From an uncultured Alphaproteobacteria bacterium (GTDB taxonomy: Bacteria > Pseudomonadota > Alphaproteobacteria > Methylaequorales > Methylaequoraceae): DNA of 64,000 nucleotides. The DNA lies in assembly GCA_902563505.1 (NCBI GenBank), contig CACEXK010000003.1:110318-174317 (forward strand). The letters run 5' to 3'. The stretch's first letter is position 1; each line of letters begins with the position of its first letter. Below, one piece after another: positions 1 to 54,453 of this stretch. The position numbers and the translations under genes are program-made. The notes beneath the pieces were generated by a model that searched no databases, was not told the DNA's origin, and was given only the letters and a program-made list of their open reading frames with translations.

Positions 1-847
1 AAAATACATTAGGGTGTATAACTACATCACTATCGATTTTTGTATCTGCACTAAAATAAACTGTTTGTGGATCAATTATTGTGGTTCCATTTTTTAGAGT
101 AAAGTTTCTAAAGTTTTCCTGAAACCGATTTTCAACTTCTGCCAAATCTCTTTTATCATTTACTCCCAAAGTTTCATTTTGGTTTACTTGAATATGTGAG
201 ACTTTTAAATTTTCATTATTCATAATTTCAACAATATCTGTGAGAAAAAACTCTTTCTTGTTATTTTTGTTTTTTATTTTCATTAATTTTTTGTGTAGAT
301 ATTTTGTTTTTGCTATCATAATTCCAGAGTTGCACAATTTTATTGATTTTTCATCGGCTTTAAGCTCTGACTTTTCGATTATTTTTTTTAATTTATCTCC
401 TGATGTAATTAATCTTCCATATGAGTGATTAGAGTTTTCTGGTATCATCGACAAAACACTTAAGTCATATTTTTTACTCCTAAAGTTCTTTAAACATTTA
501 TGTAATGTATTTTTTGAAATAAGAGGCGTATCTGCATATAAAATTATTGTTAATTCTGGCTTTTGCGATTCTTTTGTTTGTAAAGCTGATAAAACAGCAT
601 CTGCAGTTCCAAGTTGATTTTTTTGCAAAGCATAGTTCACTCTATTGTATTTTTTGGAGATTTGGTCCACATAATCGTTAAGATTTTTTGAAATTACTAA
701 TGTAATGTTTTGAGGTTTGAGATCTCTTGATGTATCCAAAACATGAAAAAGCATTGGATAATTTCCAACATTGTGGAAAATTTTGGGAGTTTTAGACTTC
801 ATCCTTTTTCCCTTACCAGCAGCTAAAATAATTATAGAAAGTGACAT
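1..847 (-). CDS. glmU: Bifunctional GlmU, N-terminal uridyltransferase part (gene continues past the window start)
   Basis: Reverse-strand translation from the ATG at 847-845 gives MSLSIIILAAGKGKRMKSKTPKIFH..., the LAAGKGKRM nucleotidyltransferase signature of GlmU. The ORF is open to position 1. Confidence 0.75.
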   Translation of the reverse strand, partial: MSLSIIILAAGKGKRMKSKTPKIFHNVGNYPMLFHVLDTSRDLKPQNITLVISKNLNDYVDQISKKYNRVNYALQKNQLGTADAVLSALQTKESQKPELTIILYADTPLISKNTLHKCLKNFRSKKYDLSVLSMIPENSNHSYGRLITSGDKLKKIIEKSELKADEKSIKLCNSGIMIAKTKYLHKKLMKIKNKNNKKEFFLTDIVEIMNNENLKVSHIQVNQNETLGVNDKRDLAEVENRFQENFRNFTLKNGTTIIDPQTVYFSADTKIDSDVVIHPNVF

Positions 848-5050: not shown

Positions 5051-5740
5051 TTAATCGAAGTTAATTAATTTCTTTACAAGTTTCATGTTGCCAAAGGCAG
5101 AAGCATCCGTATTTTCATATCTTTCTTGCATAATAACTCCAACACCATCACATATTATCTCGTTATTTTTTATTTTTACATCAATTGGACCTGATCTAGT
5201 ATCTGCTATAAAATTCGTCGTTCCTTGTCCGGAAATTTCAATGCAATTTTTAAAAACCTTTCCACTCATTCTATATTTCTTATATCTATTTATTATTTTG
5301 TATTGCATATCAAATTGACTTGTTGGTTTAACATTTAAAAGTGGTGGTTGAAATCCTCTAACTAAGAAAAGTTGTTCTCTTACTTGCCATTCTTCAATAT
5401 TAAAATTCATATCCGGATAAATAACCTTTTCAACTGGTTCTACAATTCCCTCATCAAAAGTTAGAATAACAGATTTTCTCGTTACCTTTTTTGAATTTAG
5501 ATTAATTTCGTAAGTATAATAACTACCATCAGAATATAATCTTGAAACTTCAAAAACATTACCGTTTTTCTTTTTTTCTGCATTAAGAATCATAATTCGT
5601 TTTTCAAAACTTTTTCCTGTATATGATGATTCAACAACAATGGAGTAAATCCATTTCAAACCTGGTTTTAAAGGAAAAAAATTTCCTTCACGGATATCAC
5701 ATGAAACAAGGAGAAATATAATGAAAAAAATTAATCTCAT
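5051..5740 (-). CDS. Lipoprotein of unknown function (paralogue of 31145..31834)
   Basis: Lipobox MRLIFFIIFLLVSC. Roughly 30% identity by my manual alignment along the full length with the 229-aa lipoprotein at 31145 (MRL..FLL.SC...PL..W.YS ... GKF..C..I.G.G..FI ... E.TD..FG). Confidence 0.6.
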   Translation of the reverse strand: MRLIFFIIFLLVSCDIREGNFFPLKPGLKWIYSIVVESSYTGKSFEKRIMILNAEKKKNGNVFEVSRLYSDGSYYTYEINLNSKKVTRKSVILTFDEGIVEPVEKVIYPDMNFNIEEWQVREQLFLVRGFQPPLLNVKPTSQFDMQYKIINRYKKYRMSGKVFKNCIEISGQGTTNFIADTRSGPIDVKIKNNEIICDGVGVIMQERYENTDASAFGNMKLVKKLINFD

Positions 5741-5745
5741 TTGAC

Positions 5746-5820
5746 GGTGCCCAGGGGAGGAATTGAACCACCGACACAGCGATTTTCAGTCGCTTGCTCT
5801 ACCAACTGAGCTACCTGGGC
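5746..5820 (-). tRNA. tRNA-Phe (GAA)
   Basis: The reverse complement folds as a cloverleaf: acceptor GCCCAGG/CCTGGGC, D-loop AGTTGGTAG with GG, anticodon loop CTGAAAA (GAA), T-loop TTCAATT, discriminator A. CC is encoded. Confidence 0.85.
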
Positions 5821-10752: not shown

Positions 10753-12372
10753 ATGAAAGAAATTATATGGGGAAGATATTCTTTACTAGTTTATACCGGA
10801 ATATTAACTCTTTTCTCTCTAGTTTTACTTTTTTATATTCCAGCATTAATTTTATTTTTTTTGCCTAGTGCAGTTTTGTTTGCAATTTGTTTAAAAGATT
10901 TTCTTCAAAAGAAAAGGTCTGTACTTTCAAACTTCCCATTATTAGGGAGATTTAGGTTTTTTTTGGAAAGCATAAGACCTGAGCTGAGGCAATACTATTG
11001 GGAGTCTGATGATGACGAAGTTCCATATTCAAGAAATCAAAGAAGTATGGTTTATCAACGGTCTAAAAATGAAGGAGGAGTTAGACCTTTTGGATCTCTA
11101 GAAAAATTTTATGAAAATGACTTCGTTTGGCTAAATCACTCAATATCACCCTCCAACATTAAATCACAAAACTTCAGAACCAAAGTTGGCGTAGGGAAAA
11201 ATGCCTATGAAATGTCTGTTCTTAATATTTCTGGCACATCATTTGGAGCAATTTCACCTCCAGCAATTACCTCCTTGAATAAGGCTGCAAGTATTGGAGG
11301 TTTTGCTCACAATACTGGTGAAGGCTCTCTCTCTTCTTATCATGAAGATGGTGGTGGTGATGCAATTTGGCAGATATCCACAGGATATTTTGGTTGTCGG
11401 GATAAAAAAGGAAATTTTTGTTCAAAGACTTTTTCTGAAAAAGCAAAAAAGAATCAAGTAAAGATGATTGAAATAAAATTAAGTCAAGGTGCAAAACCTG
11501 GACATGGCGGAATGCTTTTGGCACCAAAAGTTACTCCAGAAATTGCTAAAACTAGAGGTATAGCAATTGGAGTTGACTGTATTTCACCTTCACATCATAA
11601 AGAGTTTTCAAATCCTATTGAACTTTTAAATTTTGTTGAGAAACTTAAAAAATTATCAGGCAACAAACCAGTTGGAATAAAAATGTGCGTTGGTCACCCA
11701 TGGGAATTAATTTCAATTGTTAAGACGATGGTTCAAACAAAAAAAATAATTGATTTTATAACTGTAGATGGGTCTGAAGGAGGAACAGGTGCAGCTCCGG
11801 TTGAGTTTACTGATCACATTGGTTGTCCCTTGAAAGACGCCCTAGTTTTTGTAGATAATGCACTTATTGGGGCTAATTTGAGAGATAGAGTGAAAATTGG
11901 TGCTTCAGGAAAAGTTGTTTCAGCATTTGATATTGCTCATATATGTGCATTAGGAGCAGACTGGGTGAATATGGCAAGACCCTTCATGTTTTCGATCGGA
12001 TGTATTCAATGTAGATCTTGTCATACCGGTGAATGCCCAACAGGTATAGCCACAATGGATCCAATGAGATACAGAGCTATAGACATTGAAGATAGATCTA
12101 TTAGAGCTGCTAATTTTCATAAAAACACACTATTTGTTTTAAAAGAATTACTAGAATCTGTTGGTGTAAATCATCCATGTGAATTAAACAGAAGGCATAT
12201 TGTCAGAAGATTGTCAGAAAGTGAGATAAGACTGGCTGATCAAATTTATCCTCGGGCTGAAAAAGGAGAATTGTTAAAGAAAGGAAAGAAAAATATTTTG
12301 GATCCAAGATTAAATGTTTATTGGAATAAGGTATCATCAAAAAGTTTTAACTATTTGCCTGGTTCAATTTAG
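10753..12372 (+). CDS. FMN-binding glutamate synthase family protein (GltB domain 2-like) with N-terminal TM helices
   Basis: GAKPGHGG ... GSEGGTGAAP ... CIQCRSCHTGECPTG motifs of the glutamate synthase FMN domain. Hydrophobic N-terminus. Confidence 0.8.
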   Translation: MKEIIWGRYSLLVYTGILTLFSLVLLFYIPALILFFLPSAVLFAICLKDFLQKKRSVLSNFPLLGRFRFFLESIRPELRQYYWESDDDEVPYSRNQRSMVYQRSKNEGGVRPFGSLEKFYENDFVWLNHSISPSNIKSQNFRTKVGVGKNAYEMSVLNISGTSFGAISPPAITSLNKAASIGGFAHNTGEGSLSSYHEDGGGDAIWQISTGYFGCRDKKGNFCSKTFSEKAKKNQVKMIEIKLSQGAKPGHGGMLLAPKVTPEIAKTRGIAIGVDCISPSHHKEFSNPIELLNFVEKLKKLSGNKPVGIKMCVGHPWELISIVKTMVQTKKIIDFITVDGSEGGTGAAPVEFTDHIGCPLKDALVFVDNALIGANLRDRVKIGASGKVVSAFDIAHICALGADWVNMARPFMFSIGCIQCRSCHTGECPTGIATMDPMRYRAIDIEDRSIRAANFHKNTLFVLKELLESVGVNHPCELNRRHIVRRLSESEIRLADQIYPRAEKGELLKKGKKNILDPRLNVYWNKVSSKSFNYLPGSI

Positions 12373-12488
12373 AAAACCCTAAAACTTTGTAAATTATAAT
12401 TTAAACCAGAAAAGGAATAATATGTATTTCAAAAAAAATTTAGAATTTGAAAAACTATTTAGTTTGAGTATGGAAATTATAAGAAATA

Positions 12489-12562
12489 GCCCTCTTAGTT
12501 TAATAGTAAAACAGGGTCTTGGTAAGACTCAGCCACTGGAGCGTAACCAGTAGAGGGCACCA
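12489..12562 (+). tRNA. tRNA-Thr(GGU)-like gene with non-canonical D and T loops. CCA is encoded and the 3' end lies 2 nt before the symporter start codon.
   Basis: Acceptor GCCCTCT/AGAGGGC, U8 A9, D-stem GTTT/AAAC, anticodon stem GGGTC/GACTC, loop TTGGTAA (GGT), T-stem ACTGG/CCAGT, discriminator A, CCA. The T-loop is AGCGTAA instead of TTCRANY, and the D-loop lacks GG. Confidence 0.55.
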
Positions 12563-12564
12563 GG

Positions 12565-13776
12565 ATGATGAAAAACTTAACACAAAAAATTTTCTTTGGT
12601 TTCATTTTAGGAATTTTATTTGGAATTTTGCTAGGCTCAATTTCTTTACCATTTAACTTTAATCAGAAGATTATTTCAACTATCGGATTTGGTGGTGATG
12701 TTTTTCTTAAAACTATAAAAATGCTTGTCGTACCAATAGTCTTTTTTTCTCTCATAAATGGTGTGGCAAATTTAAATAATATTGGCTCACTAGGTAGGAT
12801 AGGAATTAAATCAATATCTATTTACATAACTACTACCTTTTTGGCAATAACCATTTCATTATTTTTTGCCAATTTAATTAATCCTGGAAAGGCATTGGAT
12901 ACAAATTTTGACACCGCAAATCTTGAAGTTTCTGATCCTCCTTCCTTTTTTGATATCCTATTAAATATAATTCCTGCTAATCCTTTTCAATCGTTAGTAG
13001 AAGGAGAAATGCTTCAAGTCATTTTTTTTGCAATTTTAATTGGGAGTGCATTATCGATGTCAAAAAAAGGTGGTGGTTTAAAAAAATTTTTTTTTGATTT
13101 TAACGAAATAATTATGAAGATTCTCTCAATTGTTATGATAATCGCGCCGATAGGTATCTTCTGTTTGATTGCAAAAACTTTTGCAACTCAGGGACTTTCA
13201 TCAATCTTAGAATTATTTAAATATTTTTTTTTAGTTATAGTTGTCCTGCTAATTCATGTAGTATTTGTTTACTTACCTATTGTTAAATTCATAGGAAAAA
13301 TAAGTTACAAAAAGTTTTTCGTTGGTATTAAAGAAGCTTTATTATTTGCATTTTCAACTTCAAGTAGTAGTGCAACAATACCAATCACATTAGAATGTTT
13401 GAAAAAAAACTTTGCAATTAGACAAAATGTAGCCTCATTTACAGTTCCGCTAGGAGCAACAATTAATATGGATGGAACCGCTATAATGCAGGGAGTAGCA
13501 ACTGTATTCATTGCTAATTTATACGGAATTGATTTATTTTTTTATGATTATCTTTCAATAATTCTTACAGCAACATTGGCATCCATAGGTACTGCTGGTG
13601 TTCCAGGTGTTGGTATAATAATGTTAGGTATGGTTTTAAGTCAGGTTGGATTACCTCTAGAAGGAATTGCAATTGTCATGGGCGTAGATAGATTTCTGGA
13701 TATGCTAAGAACATCCGTAAATATATCTGGTGATGCAATGGTTTCAATAATTGTCAATAAAACAGAGAAAAAATGA
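12565..13776 (+). CDS. Dicarboxylate/amino acid:cation symporter (GltP/DctA, DAACS family)
   Basis: 403 aa polytopic membrane protein with SLC1-family motifs (SSSSATIP, NMDGTA, the hairpin HP2 region GVPGVG). Confidence 0.85.
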   Translation: MMKNLTQKIFFGFILGILFGILLGSISLPFNFNQKIISTIGFGGDVFLKTIKMLVVPIVFFSLINGVANLNNIGSLGRIGIKSISIYITTTFLAITISLFFANLINPGKALDTNFDTANLEVSDPPSFFDILLNIIPANPFQSLVEGEMLQVIFFAILIGSALSMSKKGGGLKKFFFDFNEIIMKILSIVMIIAPIGIFCLIAKTFATQGLSSILELFKYFFLVIVVLLIHVVFVYLPIVKFIGKISYKKFFVGIKEALLFAFSTSSSSATIPITLECLKKNFAIRQNVASFTVPLGATINMDGTAIMQGVATVFIANLYGIDLFFYDYLSIILTATLASIGTAGVPGVGIIMLGMVLSQVGLPLEGIAIVMGVDRFLDMLRTSVNISGDAMVSIIVNKTEKK

Positions 13777-13949
13777 GATGGTATGAGGTAGAATTAGAAA
13801 TGCCTATTCTTGGAAAGAACATTGAAATGGTTCAAGCTATTGACCGTGAAAGTGCTAAAATTATTGCCATAAGAAAGACTGGAATAAATTATAATTTTAG
13901 TAAAGAAAATATATTTGTAACAAAGGTTAAACAAATTAAAGTTTAAAAT
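13773..13949 (+). CDS. Small ORF of 58 aa, coupled by ATGA to the symporter stop
   Basis: MRWYEVELEMPILGKNIEMVQAIDRESAKIIAIRKTGINYNFSKENIFVTKVKQIKV. Its ATG overlaps the symporter TGA. It is below the length cutoff of the supplied ORF track. Confidence 0.3.
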
Positions 13950-15276
13950 TTATTTTTCTTCCTAAAGGCTTTGAAATAATTTGCTGATCAGATACTACAA
14001 TACTTCCATTAACAATTGTAAATATTGGAATACCTTGAACTGTAAAATTATCATAAGGCGTCCATTTCGATTTACTTTGTATCCATTTATTGGAAATTTT
14101 AAACTTCTTTTTCATATCTATAATTGCTAAGTCTGCATCATAGCCAATTTTTATTTCACCTTTATCTACGACCTTATATATTTTACAAGGATTCTTACAA
14201 ACCATTCTTACAAGATCAAATATTGATAATTTACCTTGATTAACAAAATTTAGCATAATTGGTAATAATGTCTGAACACCCGTCATTCCTGATGGTGAAT
14301 TTGGGTATTTTTTTTTTTTTTCATCCAAAGTATGTGGAGCATGGTCAGATCCAATTACATCAATTACACCCCTTGACACACCATCCCATAAACCTTCATT
14401 ATGAGTTTTGTCTCTTATTGGTGGGTTCATTTGTGCTAGAGTACCTATGCTTTGATAACAGTCTGGTGAAATAAAAAAAAGATGTTGTGGAGTAACTTCA
14501 CATGTAGCTATATCCTTATTTGATTCCAGTAAAGATACTTCATCAGCCGTTGATAAATGAAGAATATGAATTTTTTTTTTTGCTTTTCTTGCTGCACTCA
14601 AAAGTCTTTTTGTACTTACAACTGCAGATGTAACATCTCTTATTTTTGGATGATCAGAAACTTTAATTTGTTTTTTTGAAAATAATTCTTTTCTCTCTCT
14701 TAGTCGGTATTCATCTTCACTATGAATAGCAATCATTTTTTTTACTTTTTTTAAAATTTTTTTAATATTTTCATCGTCTTCAACCAAAAGGTCACCAGTT
14801 GAAGAACCCATAAAAATCTTTATACCACAACAACCGGGTGTTTTTTCTAATTCATTTAATTCATAAACATTTTCTTTGGTTGCACCAATGAAAAAACTAA
14901 AATTACAAAAACTATTTTTACTTGCTATATTAATTTTTTTTTCAAATTCATTTTCATTAATCGTAGGTGGATTAGTATTTGGCATTTCAAAAATAGAAGT
15001 TGTTCCACCAAGAACTGCTCCTCTTGTTCCATGGTAAATATCTTCTTTGTGCGTAAGACCAGGTTCTCTGAAATGAACTTGAGTATCAATCGCTCCAGGT
15101 AAAACTAAAAGACCATTTATTTTTAAAATTTTCGTTGCTGATTTTCTTGATAAATCACCTAACATAGCAATTTTTGAGTCGATGATCCCTATATCCATTT
15201 TTTCAATCTTTGAATTAGGGAGCACCACTTCGCCTCCCAATAAGATTAAATCATAATTGTCTAGAATATTTTTCAT
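13936..15276 (-). CDS. pyrC: Dihydroorotase (cyclic amidohydrolase family)
   Basis: The metal-binding motif DTQVHFREPG (DxHVHxR) and 446 aa length match the multimeric-type dihydroorotase/allantoinase fold. Confidence 0.75.
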   Translation of the reverse strand: MKNILDNYDLILLGGEVVLPNSKIEKMDIGIIDSKIAMLGDLSRKSATKILKINGLLVLPGAIDTQVHFREPGLTHKEDIYHGTRGAVLGGTTSIFEMPNTNPPTINENEFEKKINIASKNSFCNFSFFIGATKENVYELNELEKTPGCCGIKIFMGSSTGDLLVEDDENIKKILKKVKKMIAIHSEDEYRLRERKELFSKKQIKVSDHPKIRDVTSAVVSTKRLLSAARKAKKKIHILHLSTADEVSLLESNKDIATCEVTPQHLFFISPDCYQSIGTLAQMNPPIRDKTHNEGLWDGVSRGVIDVIGSDHAPHTLDEKKKKYPNSPSGMTGVQTLLPIMLNFVNQGKLSIFDLVRMVCKNPCKIYKVVDKGEIKIGYDADLAIIDMKKKFKISNKWIQSKSKWTPYDNFTVQGIPIFTIVNGSIVVSDQQIISKPLGRKINFKL

Positions 15277-49284: not shown

Positions 49285-49399
49285 ATTTAATCAAACTTAA
49301 AATATCTTTTATATAAATAAATTTATAGGGTTTAATTTTTTTTTTTATTTAATATCATAAAAATGCTGTTTTACAGCTATGGCAATAAACGTTTGATTT

Positions 49400-49660
49400 G
49401 TGAACCGAGACGGACCCGGGGGCGGTACCCGGCGCCTCCACCAATAAATTAAGGGGGCGAAATAGGATCGACGTGCGTGGGAATTTTCAAAAACTTTGCC
49501 CGGAATGGTACCAACGTTATCGGACTAAAACTTATAAATGCCAACGATAATACAATGGCACTCGCTGCTTAATTTATTAAGTTAGCGCGGTTGTGAGATC
49601 ACCGGGCAACAGAAGTCTCATCGGCAAGGGCGGGCAATTGTTCGCCCTTGTTTGTTTTAA
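49400..49660 (+). ncRNA. ssrA: tmRNA (ssrA), circularly permuted two-piece type. The acceptor piece ends CCA at 49443 and the coding piece starts GGGGGCG at 49453.
   Basis: A GC-rich block in an AT-rich region. T-arm CCGGG-GGCGGTA-CCCGG, 3' acceptor strand CGCCUCC-A-CCA pairing with the downstream GGGGGCG, which gives a G3:U70 alanine identity pair. Tag reading frame 49540..49572 is GCC AAC GAT AAT ACA ATG GCA CTC GCT GCT TAA = ANDNTMALAA*. Terminator hairpin at 49626..49658. Confidence 0.8.
49626..49658 (+). terminator. Rho-independent terminator at the 3' end of the ssrA coding piece
   Basis: Stem AAGGGCG ... CGCCCTT with a 10-nt loop, followed by GTTTGTTTT. Confidence 0.6.
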
Positions 49661-50096
49661 GTAGACTCACAAAAGGTTTTAGAGGATTCACTCTTCAACA
49701 AATAAGGGAAAATGAAATAGGTTAAGTGTAACGCATTTTTTAAGAAACTCCATGTAATAAAGGAGTTCAGTTCATACTTTAAATATCTGTAAAATTTGAA
49801 GTGTAGTTTTTTCATATAAAAATGATTGCAAAAAACAGTAGATTAAACCTCAGGAAAAAAATTTCATCTACTAACTTTTCTTTTAAATATTTATTTCTAA
49901 TCATAATTTTTCCTGAAGGGTAAAAGTAATCTGAAAAACATGTTGAAATTTCAAATGCAAATGTTGCATCTTTTATTTTTGTTATTAATTTATTCGACCT
50001 TTGTGGATCAGACAATTTAATAAAAATAATTATAAAGTTGAAAATCTAATTCATTTTCCTGGGCATTAAGTGTTTTAATTAAATAAATTCATAAAT

Positions 50097-50864
50097 TTAA
50101 TGATTTTTTCTATAAATTCCTTTGATGGAGATAGAAAAATCTAAAAAAAATAAATTTGGTACTTTAATAACTTTAATTTTTTCAAGACTATTATCTAAAC
50201 ATTTCAAAATTTTGTCTGAGAAATTTGGGTGTTCCCAGCAAATTATTTTATCATAATCTAATCCAAGTTTTTTATAAACATGTCGTCTTGTAAAAAAAAA
50301 TCTTCCAAGTCCCCATGCTAAATGTCCCTCATTTGGAATTACAAAAATTAAGTATCCATCCTTTTTTAAAATTCTGTTTATTTGAACTACAAACTCCTCT
50401 AAATTCATTATATGTTCTAGTGAAAAAAAAGATAAAACATAATCATATGACCTGGAAGATATTTGACTCATATCTTTAACTTTATTTATTATAAACTTTT
50501 TAACCTTTATTTTTCGTTTATTTAATTTTTTTTCTGATATTTTTAAAAAATCTAAATTAGTGTCTATTAAATCAAAAGATTTTGGAGTTTTACTTTTCCA
50601 AAATTTTTCATGGTCAAGAAAACCTGGACCTATTTCTATTATATTTTTATTATGAAAGTTAATTAAAGAATTTTGAATAACCTTATATGCATTTAGTTTA
50701 ATTAATTTATCTATTAAACTTTTATCTCTATGCTCATAAGTTTTTGTTATATTATTAATCCAGGATAACCAATCTTGATCGTCTTTATCAAAATTATAAT
50801 AATATTTTCTTCTATCACCGAATAATTTTTTATATAAAAAATATGGCAAAAATTTTCTTATCAT
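50097..50864 (-). CDS. Class I SAM-dependent methyltransferase
   Basis: IIEIGPGF (motif I) and an acidic motif II region. 255 aa. Confidence 0.6.
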   Translation of the reverse strand: MIRKFLPYFLYKKLFGDRRKYYYNFDKDDQDWLSWINNITKTYEHRDKSLIDKLIKLNAYKVIQNSLINFHNKNIIEIGPGFLDHEKFWKSKTPKSFDLIDTNLDFLKISEKKLNKRKIKVKKFIINKVKDMSQISSRSYDYVLSFFSLEHIMNLEEFVVQINRILKKDGYLIFVIPNEGHLAWGLGRFFFTRRHVYKKLGLDYDKIICWEHPNFSDKILKCLDNSLEKIKVIKVPNLFFLDFSISIKGIYRKNH

Positions 50865-51307
50865 ATCAAATAAAATTTTTAAAAAGTTGTTTAAATTATA
50901 TATTTTTTTTTATTATAGCAAATTTTTTTTTTTTTATCTTCATAGGATGTTATGATTCTATTTTTTAGCTCATTATTGCCTAACCAATCATCAAAAGGTT
51001 CATCATTAATCCATTTTTCCTTTTTGTTTAAAAAAATTTCAATTGTTTCGGCTTTATATATTTTTTTTTCGAGCTGGCTTTCCATTTTCTAACTCTGTTT
51101 TGATGTTGCATTCAAGAATTATTTGATCAGAAAAAACAAAATGATGAAATAAAATAAAATAAAAAGAAAATAAAATATTTTTTCATTTACACCTTATATT
51201 AAATTTGCATTTCATTGAGAATTAAAATTGATACATTTTAAGATATCAAAAAATAAATTCTTTTACTATTCTGAAAATGTAGATTTCTTCTCTAAAAAAG
51301 TTTTTCT

Positions 51308-52144
51308 TTATTTCTTATAATTTGGATTTTTTTGATTTGATTTAGTAATTTTTGTCAGTTCAGAAAAATTCAAATTTTTTTCCTTAGGAAAAGCAAAAAT
51401 ATAAAACTTTCCAACTCTATCAAAATGATTTTCTGAATTAATAAAATAATTTTCTTCATTGAAAAATCTGTAGTCAAACCAGTATAAATCATAATTTTGC
51501 GTAAATAAGAAGTTATTTAATTCAAAAGGGTTTGTAGGGTTATTTTCACATATTATGATGGGTCTGAATTTTTTAATAAATTTCAAACCACCCTCTAATA
51601 TTTGCTTTTCAAGTAGCTCTGCTTCTAACTTAATTAAATTACATTTTTTAATATCTTCAAATAAATCTAAATTTTTTATCTGAACTTTAGTTTTATTACC
51701 TTTATTAATTTTTATAAATTCAGAATAATTATAATTTTCTCCCAAACCGAATCCGCCAAAATTACCAACTTCTGAATAATTTATTTCATCTACGAGTACT
51801 TCCGTTTGTATTTTACCCATACCTGCATTAAATACTTCGACATTTTTTATATCATTAAGTGCTAAATTTCCACATTGGAGGTAATAAAGCATTTTTTGTG
51901 GTTCAAAGGAAAATACTTTCCCCTCATATCCAATTTTTTTAGATATTGGAATTGTAAATAAGCCTACATGTGATCCAATATCAAAAACATAATCAGATTT
52001 ACTTATTAAAGATAAAATTTTATTTAGTAATTTTTCAGACCACTCGCCGTATTCTCTGATGCTAAGTCCCACAAATTCATCATAATTTAAGAACATAAAG
52101 TCACCATGCTTTGCATTAACAAAACCTACAGAATTATTTTTCAT
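51308..52144 (-). CDS. FkbM-family methyltransferase
   Basis: VFDIGSHVGLFTIP ... FSFEP, typical of the FkbM domain. Confidence 0.7.
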   Translation of the reverse strand: MKNNSVGFVNAKHGDFMFLNYDEFVGLSIREYGEWSEKLLNKILSLISKSDYVFDIGSHVGLFTIPISKKIGYEGKVFSFEPQKMLYYLQCGNLALNDIKNVEVFNAGMGKIQTEVLVDEINYSEVGNFGGFGLGENYNYSEFIKINKGNKTKVQIKNLDLFEDIKKCNLIKLEAELLEKQILEGGLKFIKKFRPIIICENNPTNPFELNNFLFTQNYDLYWFDYRFFNEENYFINSENHFDRVGKFYIFAFPKEKNLNFSELTKITKSNQKNPNYKK

Positions 52145-52472
52145 AAATGAACATCAGCAAAATTCATTCCATATTGTTAAAAAATAATTAAAAAAAAAGG
52201 GGATAGAAATCCCCTTTTCGTATTAAAGTAAATCAAATTAAAAAGATTATTTAACCTTTAGTCAAAGGTTGCTCCGATAAAAAGTTAAATACATTAAATT
52301 GAGTTAAATCTATAATACTAGACATCAGATCACCTCCTTAAAAAATAATTAATATTAATTTTAATATAGTGTGACATATTCAGATTCACAAGTTGAATGA
52401 AGGTATGGGAAAAAAATTCTAAAAATATTAAGTATTAATCATACAATTCTTCAATTTTTCTGCAAAAATTAT

Positions 52473-53567
52473 ATGATTAGAGTTATGAGTAGAAAATTAA
52501 ATGCTATTGATTTATTCGCAGGTGCTGGTGGTTTGTCATATGGATTGTCAGAAAGTGGGATTAAGGTTTTATTAGCTAATGAAATTGAGAATGACTTTTC
52601 TAAAACTTACATGCTAAATCATTCTAAAACGGAAATGCTTAACTGCGATATAAGTAAAATTGATTTTAAAAAAAAAATTCAAGACTTGGGTTGTCAAAAT
52701 ATTGATATTTTATGTGGAGGCCCACCTTGCCAAGGTTTTAGTACTGTTGGTAAAAAAGATCAAAGTGATAGGAGAAACTCACTCTTTTGGGAATTTCTTC
52801 GCGTAGTTAAAGAAACTAGTCCTAAAGTAATTTTATTTGAAAATGTCTCTGGCTTTAAAACTTTATATAAAGGTTTAGCTTTTTCAACTTTACTAAGTGA
52901 ATTAAAAATGATGGGATTCAAAACTTTTCATAATGTTTTAGATGCGTCTGACTTTGGCCTACCACAAAGAAGACTTAGAACTATAATTGTAGGTGTTATT
53001 TTTGATAAAGCCTTCCAATTTCCAAAGTTAACGCATTATAATTTAGATAATTTATTTGGGGAAAAAAAATTGACTTTGATGGATGCAATATCTGATTTAC
53101 CGAATCTTAAATCTGGAGAGTCAAAAGATTTTTACTCTACAAAACCAAATAACAATTTTCAAAAGAAAATGAGAGGAGATCTAGAGATTTTAACTGAACA
53201 CAATGCAACGAATTACGGAGAAAAAATGAAAAAAATTCTAAGTTTAATTCCAAAAAATGGTAGCGTGTTAAATTTACCTAAGGAATTAAGGCCAAAGAAA
53301 TATTTTAATAATGTATATGCTCGACTTGATGGTGAAAAAATTTGTCCAACTATAACAAGAAATTTTGGTACACCATCTTCATCAAGATGTATTCATCCTC
53401 ACCAAAATAGAGCATTGTCAACTAGAGAAGGAGCTAGAATACAAAGTTTTCCTGATAATTTTAGATTTTATGGAAGTAAGACAAGTAAAAATCTACAAAT
53501 TGGAAACGCAGTTCCTCCACTATTAGGAAAATTGCTTGGTAAAGAAATTAAAAAGTTATTTTCTTGA
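52473..53567 (+). CDS. dcm: DNA (cytosine-5)-methyltransferase (type II R-M modification subunit)
   Basis: C5-MTase motifs I DLFAGAGG, IV GGPPCQGFS, VI ENV, VIII QRRLRTIIVG and X GNAVPP. Confidence 0.9.
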   Translation: MIRVMSRKLNAIDLFAGAGGLSYGLSESGIKVLLANEIENDFSKTYMLNHSKTEMLNCDISKIDFKKKIQDLGCQNIDILCGGPPCQGFSTVGKKDQSDRRNSLFWEFLRVVKETSPKVILFENVSGFKTLYKGLAFSTLLSELKMMGFKTFHNVLDASDFGLPQRRLRTIIVGVIFDKAFQFPKLTHYNLDNLFGEKKLTLMDAISDLPNLKSGESKDFYSTKPNNNFQKKMRGDLEILTEHNATNYGEKMKKILSLIPKNGSVLNLPKELRPKKYFNNVYARLDGEKICPTITRNFGTPSSSRCIHPHQNRALSTREGARIQSFPDNFRFYGSKTSKNLQIGNAVPPLLGKLLGKEIKKLFS

Positions 53568-54146
53568 TTTTAAAATTGGCCTAAATACGAGCCCTTTATA
53601 TTCTTTAAATTCTATTTCTTGGCCCCAATTATTGCAATCAACGCACATTGGTACAATATTTCCTATTTCGTATGATTTACTCTTCAAAAGATGTCCTTTG
53701 TCATAGTGATTCATTTTTCGTCCACAAACAGCACATCCACGTTCTTTGAATTTTTCTAAAATTTTTTGCCAATCTTCATTTGTCAAATTATTTTCTCTCT
53801 TGATTGAATTTTTAGTCCAAACCGGATTAGGTTCTTCAATTGAATGTAAAGACATCTGATTATTTCTGAATTTCTTTTCATATATCCCTCTGGTAAATCT
53901 TTTATTTCCAGATTTTATATACCAACCTAAATCAGCTAAATGTCTAGCCTGCCTCTTATATTCAAAATTATTCTCACTGTGCCATCTTTCAATTTCATCC
54001 TGAGTCATTGGTTTGGGCATCTTTGCATATAGGCAAATCAATTCAATAAGTTTTTTCCCAGATGGAAAATCTACTCCTTCATTCCTGAGATTTGAATGCC
54101 ATTTAGTTCGTATTTTAATTTCTAAATCTTTTAAAATTCTATTCAT
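53556..54146 (-). CDS. HNH-motif endonuclease, candidate restriction enzyme partner of the C5-MTase
   Basis: CAVCGRK...H..GH...N..PMCVDCNN (CxxC...H...N...CxxC HNH core). Convergent with the MTase gene, with a 12-nt 3' overlap. Confidence 0.55.
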   Translation of the reverse strand: MNRILKDLEIKIRTKWHSNLRNEGVDFPSGKKLIELICLYAKMPKPMTQDEIERWHSENNFEYKRQARHLADLGWYIKSGNKRFTRGIYEKKFRNNQMSLHSIEEPNPVWTKNSIKRENNLTNEDWQKILEKFKERGCAVCGRKMNHYDKGHLLKSKSYEIGNIVPMCVDCNNWGQEIEFKEYKGLVFRPILKSRK

Positions 54147-54168
54147 TATGCAAAAGATAATATAAATT

Positions 54169-54453
54169 TTAGTAATTCATCCTTTTCTTTATTTCCTCGA
54201 CATATTCAGGAAAATAATCATTTATTTTCATTAATTTAAAAGATGCTAGTATTGAAGTGTTTGACTCATTATCTAGGAGAAACTCAAAACTTAAATACAA
54301 AAGTTTTTCCTTTGTAATTTTGCCATTCGTCAAATATTGATAAACTTCATCTGAAACATTTACAAGATGAGTCGTCACAGATTTTGAATTGATTGTAATA
54401 TGAAATTCATCATCTGAATTTTTCTTTATGTTTATTTTGTTATCAGCTACCAT
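54169..54453 (-). CDS. Hypothetical protein (94 aa)
   Basis: ORF only. No recognisable motifs. Confidence 0.3.
   Translation of the reverse strand: MVADNKINIKKNSDDEFHITINSKSVTTHLVNVSDEVYQYLTNGKITKEKLLYLSFEFLLDNESNTSILASFKLMKINDYFPEYVEEIKKRMNY

Follow-up and report, generated by a model that had tools for sequence, protein, structure and literature searches.

The DNA analyzed here (the window) is a stretch of 64,000 nucleotides (nt) from contig CACEXK010000003.1 of an uncultured alphaproteobacterium. At 12489-12562 on its forward strand lies a transfer RNA (tRNA) gene of 74 nt, called as tRNA-Thr(ggt) by ARAGORN, which is followed by a gene for a cation symporter and whose D-loop and T-loop depart from the canonical tRNA elbow. 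The window has about 29% G+C, dense coding and a two-piece alphaproteobacterial transfer-messenger RNA (tmRNA), consistent with TMED127 ('Methylaequorales'), a deep-branching marine alphaproteobacterial order with genomes of about 1.5 Mb (PMC12542740). The parts of the tRNA gene, with the evidence for each, are as follows.

12489..12559, forward strand: tRNA-Thr(GGU) body from G1 to discriminator A73 (71 nt); ARAGORN, RF00005, identity in 23 of 28 species, cloverleaf covariation
12502..12508, forward strand: D-loop AAUAGUA, with A at the G18 position and G19 kept; sequence and RF00005 alignment (consensus AaUGGUA)
12521..12523, forward strand: anticodon GGU, inside the loop UUGGUAA (12519-12525); ARAGORN and sequence
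12535..12551, forward strand: T arm, stem ACUGG/CCAGU; EF-Tu model (PMC3239215, Tables 1-2) and the C50G/G64C compensation in locus L004
12540..12546, forward strand: T-loop AGCGUAA, that is A54 G55 C56 G57 U58 A59 A60; sequence
12560..12562, forward strand: 3' CCA, encoded in the genome; sequence, kept in 28 of 28 loci
12563..12564, forward strand: GG spacer of 2 nt between the CCA and the symporter ATG; sequence

The acceptor stem (GCCCUCU/AGAGGGC, with discriminator A at 12559) is followed by U8 A9, a D stem (GUUU/AAAC), A26, an anticodon stem (GGGUC/GACUC) and a variable loop of 4 nt (AGCC). The D stem is very weak, with one G-C and three A-U pairs. U8, A14, U33, a purine at position 37 and G53-C61 are all as in canonical tRNAs. 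The canonical G18G19 is absent, the D-loop carrying A18 and G19, and of the canonical U54-U55-C56 and A58 only C56 is found in the T-loop. Five departures were counted in the elbow: A18 for G18, A54 for U54 (T), G55 for U55 (pseudouridine), U58 for A58, and A60 for a pyrimidine. An earlier reading, made from the letters alone (the sequence-only reading), had described a tRNA-Thr(GGU)-like cloverleaf of 74 nt with its CCA 2 nt before the symporter ATG, on which ARAGORN and RF00005 agree, and a T-loop AGCGUAA with A54/U58 swapped and no U55, as is read in the sequence. It had also placed the end of the feature at 12567, which takes in the ATG of the next gene (the tRNA ends at 12562), and had described the D-loop as lacking G18G19; G18 is indeed replaced by A, but G19 is retained, with its partner C56.

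With filters relaxed, RF00005 scored 49.4 bits (E = 1e-9) over 12489..12559, against a gathering threshold of 29 bits. A scan of the window with default filters recovered tRNA-Phe (69.2 bits) and the tmRNA, and missed the tRNA-Thr(GGU). The sequence-only reading was to count as refuted if covariance models scored the element as an ordinary tRNA present in all relatives. Taken literally, this is what was found (see below), but the element is not ordinary, its score being 20 bits lower than that of tRNA-Phe in the same window and default filters passing over it. The cloverleaf is the minimum-free-energy fold; the free-energy z-score of the single sequence (-1.48) is unremarkable, and stability alone would not flag the element. 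On these sequence criteria, 12489-12562 is a genuine tRNA gene, a member of RF00005 and, by its identity elements, of tRNA-Thr, and not one with a canonical elbow.

The poor detectability was not confined to the window. Default Infernal/Rfam filters missed 17 of 17 standard TMED127 copies scanned, and about half of the AGCGTAA-type tRNAs that match the search pattern in metagenome loci (described below) were called by ARAGORN. A spurious open reading frame (ORF) of 43 amino acids (12422..12553, forward strand) overlaps the tRNA-Thr(GGU), and on contig MDSW01179226.1 (locus L287, 4670-4792) the public annotation makes a gene of the equivalent ORF of 41 amino acids, apparently with the tRNA unrecognised. 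Alternative-elbow tRNAs are likely to be under-annotated, and estimates of the tRNA complement of these bacteria and phages are likely to be incomplete, with spurious ORFs called instead.

To establish the distribution of the gene, one genome per species (185,579 species) was scanned for GGAGCGTAACC preceded by a GGT anticodon loop. This gave 28 loci, all in single-amplified or metagenome-assembled genomes of uncultured marine Alphaproteobacteria and nearly all of order TMED127, and the combination of a GGT anticodon loop with the exact T-loop is confined to those 28 among the 185,579 species genomes. The genomes MED715, MED652, TMED13, AG-911-L17, AG-337-K15, SP101, SAT166 and the SD3109 bin are assigned to different TMED127 genera (PMC12542740), and on these names TMED127 took the place of SAR11 or HIMB59 as the presumed group; genome SP3058 (locus L013) is absent from the TMED127 tables of the same paper. 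ARAGORN reported tRNA-Thr(ggt) in 27 of the 28 loci. All 74 nt are base-for-base as in the window in 23 loci, with 1-3 differences in four and 11 in L013. In locus L004 the T stem shows a compensatory change (C50-G64 to G50-C64), and in L013 compensatory changes lie in the acceptor and anticodon stems, with 49.1 bits retained. The L013 copy (363-436, forward strand) is the one for which ARAGORN gives no call; its differences are mostly compensatory.

Unlike the tRNA, the flanking DNA is unalignable among the loci. The neighbouring proteins are 61-82% (symporter), 56-75% (PyrC), 45-61% (AsnB) and 76-89% (ORF539) identical, and the gene order murA-dcd-ORF539-tRNA-symporter-pyrC-asnB is kept. Cloverleaf pairing was examined in nine different tRNA-Thr(GGU) sequences that have this elbow, five of them cellular and four from phages: 97.4% of cells were paired and 13 of 21 pairs were altered on both sides, a level that none of 500 shuffles reached, while slid controls were at most 43% paired. 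Identity of all 74 nt in 23 of 28 species, against 45-89% for the adjacent proteins, goes far past what chance would give, and the element is a gene and not a relic; judged by this pattern, the tRNA-Thr(GGU) is under purifying selection.

The same data bear on whether the element might be a tRNA pseudogene in decay, or what is left of a phage attachment (att) site. Its elbow nucleotides are non-canonical, its covariance score is below that of tRNA-Phe (49 vs. 69 bits) and default filters miss it, which speaks for such a reading; against this, the cloverleaf is intact and of full length, identical in 23 of 28 species and compensatory where it varies, with conserved housekeeping neighbours and no integrase. 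No second copy of either tRNA half was found in the window at up to 3 mismatches. The sequence-only reading had offered the remnant of an integration site as one of its options, and with no tRNA-half repeats in the window, no phage att-like match and conserved housekeeping synteny, this option was dropped. The conservation pattern all but refutes both a pseudogene and an att remnant, a reading that we regard as scarcely credible. The option of an unusual but functional tRNA, also raised at first, is favoured by the conservation and the compensatory changes.

Metagenomes were then scanned for AATAGYA...GGAGCGTAACC with a first anticodon base other than G. At least 120 contigs matched, the samples being soil, peat, freshwater, gut and marine. 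When any anticodon was allowed, IMG/VR viral contigs were also found to carry this elbow; many of them (among the matches listed, as for the next two statements) are 100-280 kb long. The matched tRNAs are full cloverleaves whose stems vary freely and which cover nearly all isotypes. They stand in dense arrays; the median locus holds 6-7 tRNAs, with as many as 38 inside 4.8 kb. The flanks of the arrays are phage-like, encoding RtcB ligase, a DnaB-like helicase, NrdD, an intein-bearing NrdA, a baseplate wedge protein and Ant/Bro anti-repressors.

For an unbiased test of covariation, array neighbours that the search pattern had not selected were used and de-duplicated, the analysis covering about 1,900 tRNAs from phage-type arrays; since each locus was selected for at least one such tRNA, the frequencies of the elbow classes are unrepresentative of phages at large. 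Positions 18 and 55 were strongly associated in the metagenome loci (U55 with GG in 588 tRNAs, U55 with AG in 19, G55 with GG in 16, G55 with AG in 188; Fisher p~3e-140), and again in the IMG/VR replicate (662, 20, 5 and 93, in the same order; Fisher p~2e-93). Positions 54 and 58 behaved alike: U:A, A:U, A:A and U:U were counted 784, 41, 10 and 3 times in the metagenome loci, and 747, 40, 8 and 0 times in the IMG/VR replicate. The sequence-only reading had suggested co-variation of the D-loop and T-loop changes, which two large independent tRNA sets strongly support. Within the A54:U58 class, G55 went with AG in 19 of 22 tRNAs and U55 with GG in 22 of 22; the two swaps are independent. Position 60 was a pyrimidine in 767 of 784 U54:A58 loops and A in 32 of 41 A54:U58 loops. 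C56 was kept in 861 of 890 array tRNAs. Seven of the 10 A54:A58 loops also carry A60, and the combination of A54 and A60 likewise marks the eukaryotic initiator tRNA.

Several arrays are uniform. Those of loci L055, L089, L104, L106, L107, L109, L139 and L030, with 8-18 tRNAs each, consist wholly or nearly wholly of tRNAs with G55 and an AG D-loop, and look like full tRNA sets built on non-canonical elbows; their contigs have 44-59% G+C, and the L055 array adjoins a gene for the RtcB tRNA ligase. Phage arrays wholly of the G55 type indicate that the elbow design is usable in translation. Several phage arrays, L157 (10626-10701) and L033 among them, also hold tRNAs whose anticodon is CUA ('Pyl' in the ARAGORN output). 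These are possible amber suppressors, and some have the alternative elbow.

With its exact AAUAGYA D-loop and AGCGUAA T-loop, the tRNA-Thr(GGU) of the window fits the elbow class of the phage arrays, where its T-loop recurs in hundreds of tRNAs. It is not located in an array, but stands solitary between ORF539 and the symporter, in conserved housekeeping synteny. Going by the covariation, the odd loops are a recurrent, internally compensated alternative elbow and not decay. We infer that the window tRNA joins two compensated swaps, G18:U55 to A18:G55 and U54:A58 to A54:U58, together with A60, and keeps G19:C56. No description of an A18:G55 or A54:U58 elbow was found in the searchable literature that was consulted, including three reviews (on the elbow, on non-canonical tRNAs and on T-loop modifications). 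In the literature, G18, U54, pseudouridine-55 and A58 are given as conserved; U54 is called universally conserved, and A54 of eukaryotic initiators the special case.

We consider it probable that 12489-12562 is a working elongator tRNA-Thr(GGU) with a compensated alternative elbow, probably co-transcribed with the symporter. It would read ACU and ACC, its L-shape being held by A18 with G55, A54 with U58, A60 in place of a pyrimidine and the outer G19:C56, the pair on which RNase P and the ribosome stack. Such a tRNA would be unable to carry m5U54, pseudouridine-55 or m1A58. The identity elements of Escherichia coli threonyl-tRNA synthetase are G1-C72, C2-G71, G35 and U36, with A73. This set is present in the tRNA-Thr(GGU) and invariant in 27 of the 28 loci, L026 having U2-G71. 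In an additive model (PMC3239215), the T-stem pairs A49-U65, C50-G64 and U51-A63 give a predicted EF-Tu affinity of -9.8 kcal/mol (-9.6 kcal/mol for the L004 variant); 158 bacterial tRNA-Thr(GGU) have a mean of -10.1 kcal/mol and a sigma of 0.52, and the staphylococcal cell-wall tRNA-Gly is reported as a weak-binding outlier (PMC3239215). Threonine codons in the window ORFs number 299 (ACU), 96 (ACC), 336 (ACA) and 53 (ACG); because ACU and ACC make up about half of them (395 of 784), demand for a threonine tRNA with G34 is heavy. Taken together, the identity elements, the T stem and the ACU/ACC usage point to ordinary decoding.

A different role would follow if the gene were a specialised second tRNA-Thr(GGU), possibly phage-derived, kept beside a canonical gene as a nuclease- or toxin-resistant spare or as a non-ribosomal donor of threonine. 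Elsewhere this elbow was met in phage arrays, and a toxin exists that cuts the canonical T-loop between T and pseudouridine. In staphylococci, G55 T-loops (UGC or UGU in place of UUC) mark the non-proteogenic tRNA-Gly that donate pentaglycine for peptidoglycan (PMC7826273). Yet these tRNAs have dihydrouridine at position 19 and are weak-binding EF-Tu outliers, whereas here G19:C56 is kept and the predicted EF-Tu affinity is at most 0.6 sigma off the Thr-GGU mean. The phage arrays that are wholly G55 argue that the elbow supports translation, and conservation per nucleotide equals that of tRNA-Phe. Duplicate tRNAs are rare in genomes of about 1.5 Mb, which was also counted against a second copy. 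We judge a specialised second copy to be improbable.

Several points weigh against the assignment as a working elongator tRNA transcribed with the symporter. The analysis covered 8-20 kb around each match, and a second, canonical tRNA-Thr(GGU) may lie elsewhere. The A18:G55 and A54:U58 pairs and their geometry are taken from covariation. Among cellular tRNAs, a G55 T-loop is documented solely for the non-proteogenic tRNA-Gly of staphylococci, which escape EF-Tu and the ribosome (PMC7826273). No consensus promoter was detected inside or upstream of the tRNA-Thr(GGU) in a scan of 12100-14100, and no positionally conserved -35/-10 was found upstream of the tRNA across the 28 loci. No close phage donor was found; the tRNA-Thr(GGU) genes of viral contigs match in the elbow but have other stems.

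The junction with the downstream gene involves two further features.

12373..12488, forward strand: AT-rich spacer 5' of the tRNA (116 nt), presumed promoter region; no promoter identified
12565..13776, forward strand: DAACS-family (GltP/DctA-like) cation symporter of 403 amino acids; ORF, with NCBIfam GltP/DctA/SstT matches, all below cut-off

No record of the exact symporter protein sequence was found in a look-up. The symporter lies directly downstream of the tRNA in 27 species, with 1-8 nt (mostly 2 nt) between CCA and ATG, and because its N-terminus aligns from the first residues there is no alternative start further downstream. The pair is kept together where the upstream genes vary. No terminator was found between the tRNA-Thr(GGU) and the symporter in the scan of 12100-14100, and the two are most likely co-transcribed, judging from the anatomy of the locus. 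They would form one transcript, started from a promoter in the upstream spacer, and excision of the tRNA would give a symporter mRNA with next to no leader, its AUG preceded by 1-8 nt. A strong promoter-like sequence, TTGATT-16-TATAAT, is present in L013 alone, where it ends 10 nt before G1.

Such close spacing is consistent with a tRNA-like cis element of the symporter mRNA that has no part in decoding, acting as a processing signal that sets the 5' end of the mRNA, or as a tRNA-Thr mimic through which threonyl-tRNA synthetase or another factor would control symporter translation, and the sequence-only reading had raised a regulatory or processing element specific to the transporter. The start codon follows the CCA at 1-8 nt in 27 species, the pairing persists where upstream genes vary, and the 3' strand of the acceptor stem contains GAGGG 8 nt ahead of the ATG. 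The comparison with tRNA-Phe speaks against it. The tRNA-Phe(GAA) of the window (5740-5820, reverse strand) and of locus L011 (405-497, reverse strand) has a canonical elbow and is identical in both. In the window it ends in CCG, with no encoded CCA, and an ATG follows 7 nt past the discriminator; in L011 the CCA is encoded and the ATG lies 5 nt past it. The downstream ORF, of 229 amino acids, is without a Pfam match. tRNA-Phe thus likewise adjoins the ORF that follows it, and abutment is regarded as a general habit of these compact genomes.

A Shine-Dalgarno core (GGAG/GAGG/AGGA) precedes 5 of the 57 window ORFs of at least 120 amino acids, against a background of 7.7%. Translation initiation in this genome appears essentially independent of Shine-Dalgarno sequences, and the GAGGG of the acceptor strand is probably incidental as one; the weight that the sequence-only reading had placed on a Shine-Dalgarno sequence inside the tRNA is not borne out by these counts. 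The homologous L013 copy (49.1 bits), on a cellular AT-rich chromosome, stands alone between divergently oriented metabolic genes, without the symporter or any co-directional downstream gene. The anticodon loop, identity elements and CCA are invariant, which a processing signal would not need, and the same elbow recurs in nearly all isotypes with no link to a transporter. A tRNA mimic of the thrS-operator type was rejected on two counts: the L013 copy is not linked to the symporter, and the whole tRNA, including the CCA, is conserved. With these observations, a symporter-specific element did not hold up, and a cis element without decoding is very unlikely. The junction would reflect genome compaction and not threonine-specific control, and a role as a regulatory leader is unlikely.

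For a working elongator tRNA-Thr(GGU), the origin of the elbow is a separate question. Because a single event suffices, as against five coordinated substitutions, capture of a phage tRNA is plausible, and as the elbow is common in the tRNA arrays of large phages, the gene may be derived from one of their tRNAs. The 17-nt D arm of the window tRNA, UAGUUUAAUAGUAAAAC, recurs unchanged in several phage tRNAs that belong to other isotypes. Seven viral contigs carry a tRNA-Thr(GGU) of the same elbow; the stems are different and the contigs have 39-57% G+C. A blastn search of the tRNA against 50,697 phage records gave chance fragments only, and no lead to an att site. At more distant ORF539 homologues (65-74% identity), the downstream synteny is lost and no tRNA-Thr is at the site. 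Downstream of one of these homologues (74% identical), on a marine contig (L280), a canonical tRNA-Arg(UCU) is found instead (5732-5808, forward strand).

More tentatively, and less probably than not, the elbow could be a modification-free architecture evolved in phages, of which a TMED127 ancestor captured one copy that replaced its own essential tRNA-Thr(GGU). The phage elbow perhaps escapes, or does not depend on, the host enzymes and toxins by which the canonical T-Psi-C loop is recognised. Were capture true, a whole free-living order would decode half its threonine codons by a phage-type tRNA. It would also be a possible case in which a bacterium exchanged a core component of translation for one from a phage.

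G18, T54, pseudouridine-55 and A58 are usually treated as near-invariant and are the targets of TrmH, TrmA, TruB and TrmI, and a conserved cellular tRNA here dispenses with all four. By the covariation, the elbow is a second, self-consistent mode of building, widespread in phage tRNA arrays; if confirmed, the gene would offer a natural system for the function of elbow modifications and of the enzymes that make them, and a testable idea on why phages re-engineer tRNAs.

Elsewhere in the window, the two-piece (permuted) tmRNA lies at 49327-49623 (forward strand), with the tag ANDNTMALAA. Just 3' of it, 50000-54200 has 22-29% G+C and encodes FkbM-type and other methyltransferases and a C5 cytosine DNA methylase (52473-53567); this segment looks like a small island beside the tmRNA gene.

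Compared with the canonical tRNA-Thr(GGU) of E. coli, thrT, the window tRNA shares the cloverleaf, an anticodon loop of 7 nt with U33 and A37, the anticodon GGU, G1-C72, C2-G71, A73, an encoded CCA, U8/A14, G53-C61, G19:C56 and a T stem of typical predicted EF-Tu affinity. It differs in A18, A54, G55, U58, A60 and its very weak D stem. With the tRNAs of phage arrays it shares the D-loop AAUAGYA, the T-loop AGCGUAA, G52-C62 and G53-C61. These arrays include tRNA-Thr(GGU) of this elbow, but no phage copy shares the stems of the window tRNA, and unlike the array tRNAs the window gene is solitary, chromosomal, AT-rich and set in an order-wide housekeeping synteny.

The staphylococcal tRNA-Gly resembles the window tRNA in being cellular and chromosomal and in having G55, hence no pseudouridine-55. 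Unlike it, the staphylococcal tRNA is without G19, has a weak EF-Tu T stem, avoids the ribosome and coexists with proteogenic paralogues. In the window tRNA G19:C56 is in place, the predicted EF-Tu affinity is normal and 54:58 is swapped as well. The eukaryotic initiator tRNA-Met also has A54 and A60, but combines them with A54:A58, U55, G18G19 and a role in initiation; the window tRNA is of the bacterial elongator type.

As for the arrangement of the genes, in the E. coli cluster thrU-tyrU-glyT-thrT-tufB a tRNA-Thr with anticodon GGU also lies directly upstream of a same-strand protein gene, with a spacer of about 100 nt and a normal ribosome-binding site. In the window the spacer is 2 nt, and the arrangement, known here from anatomy, is general to the compact genome. 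In the 'tRNA punctuation' of mitochondria, excision of abutting tRNAs yields leaderless mRNAs, and the tRNA-Thr(GGU) of the window likewise stands 2 nt from a same-strand start codon.

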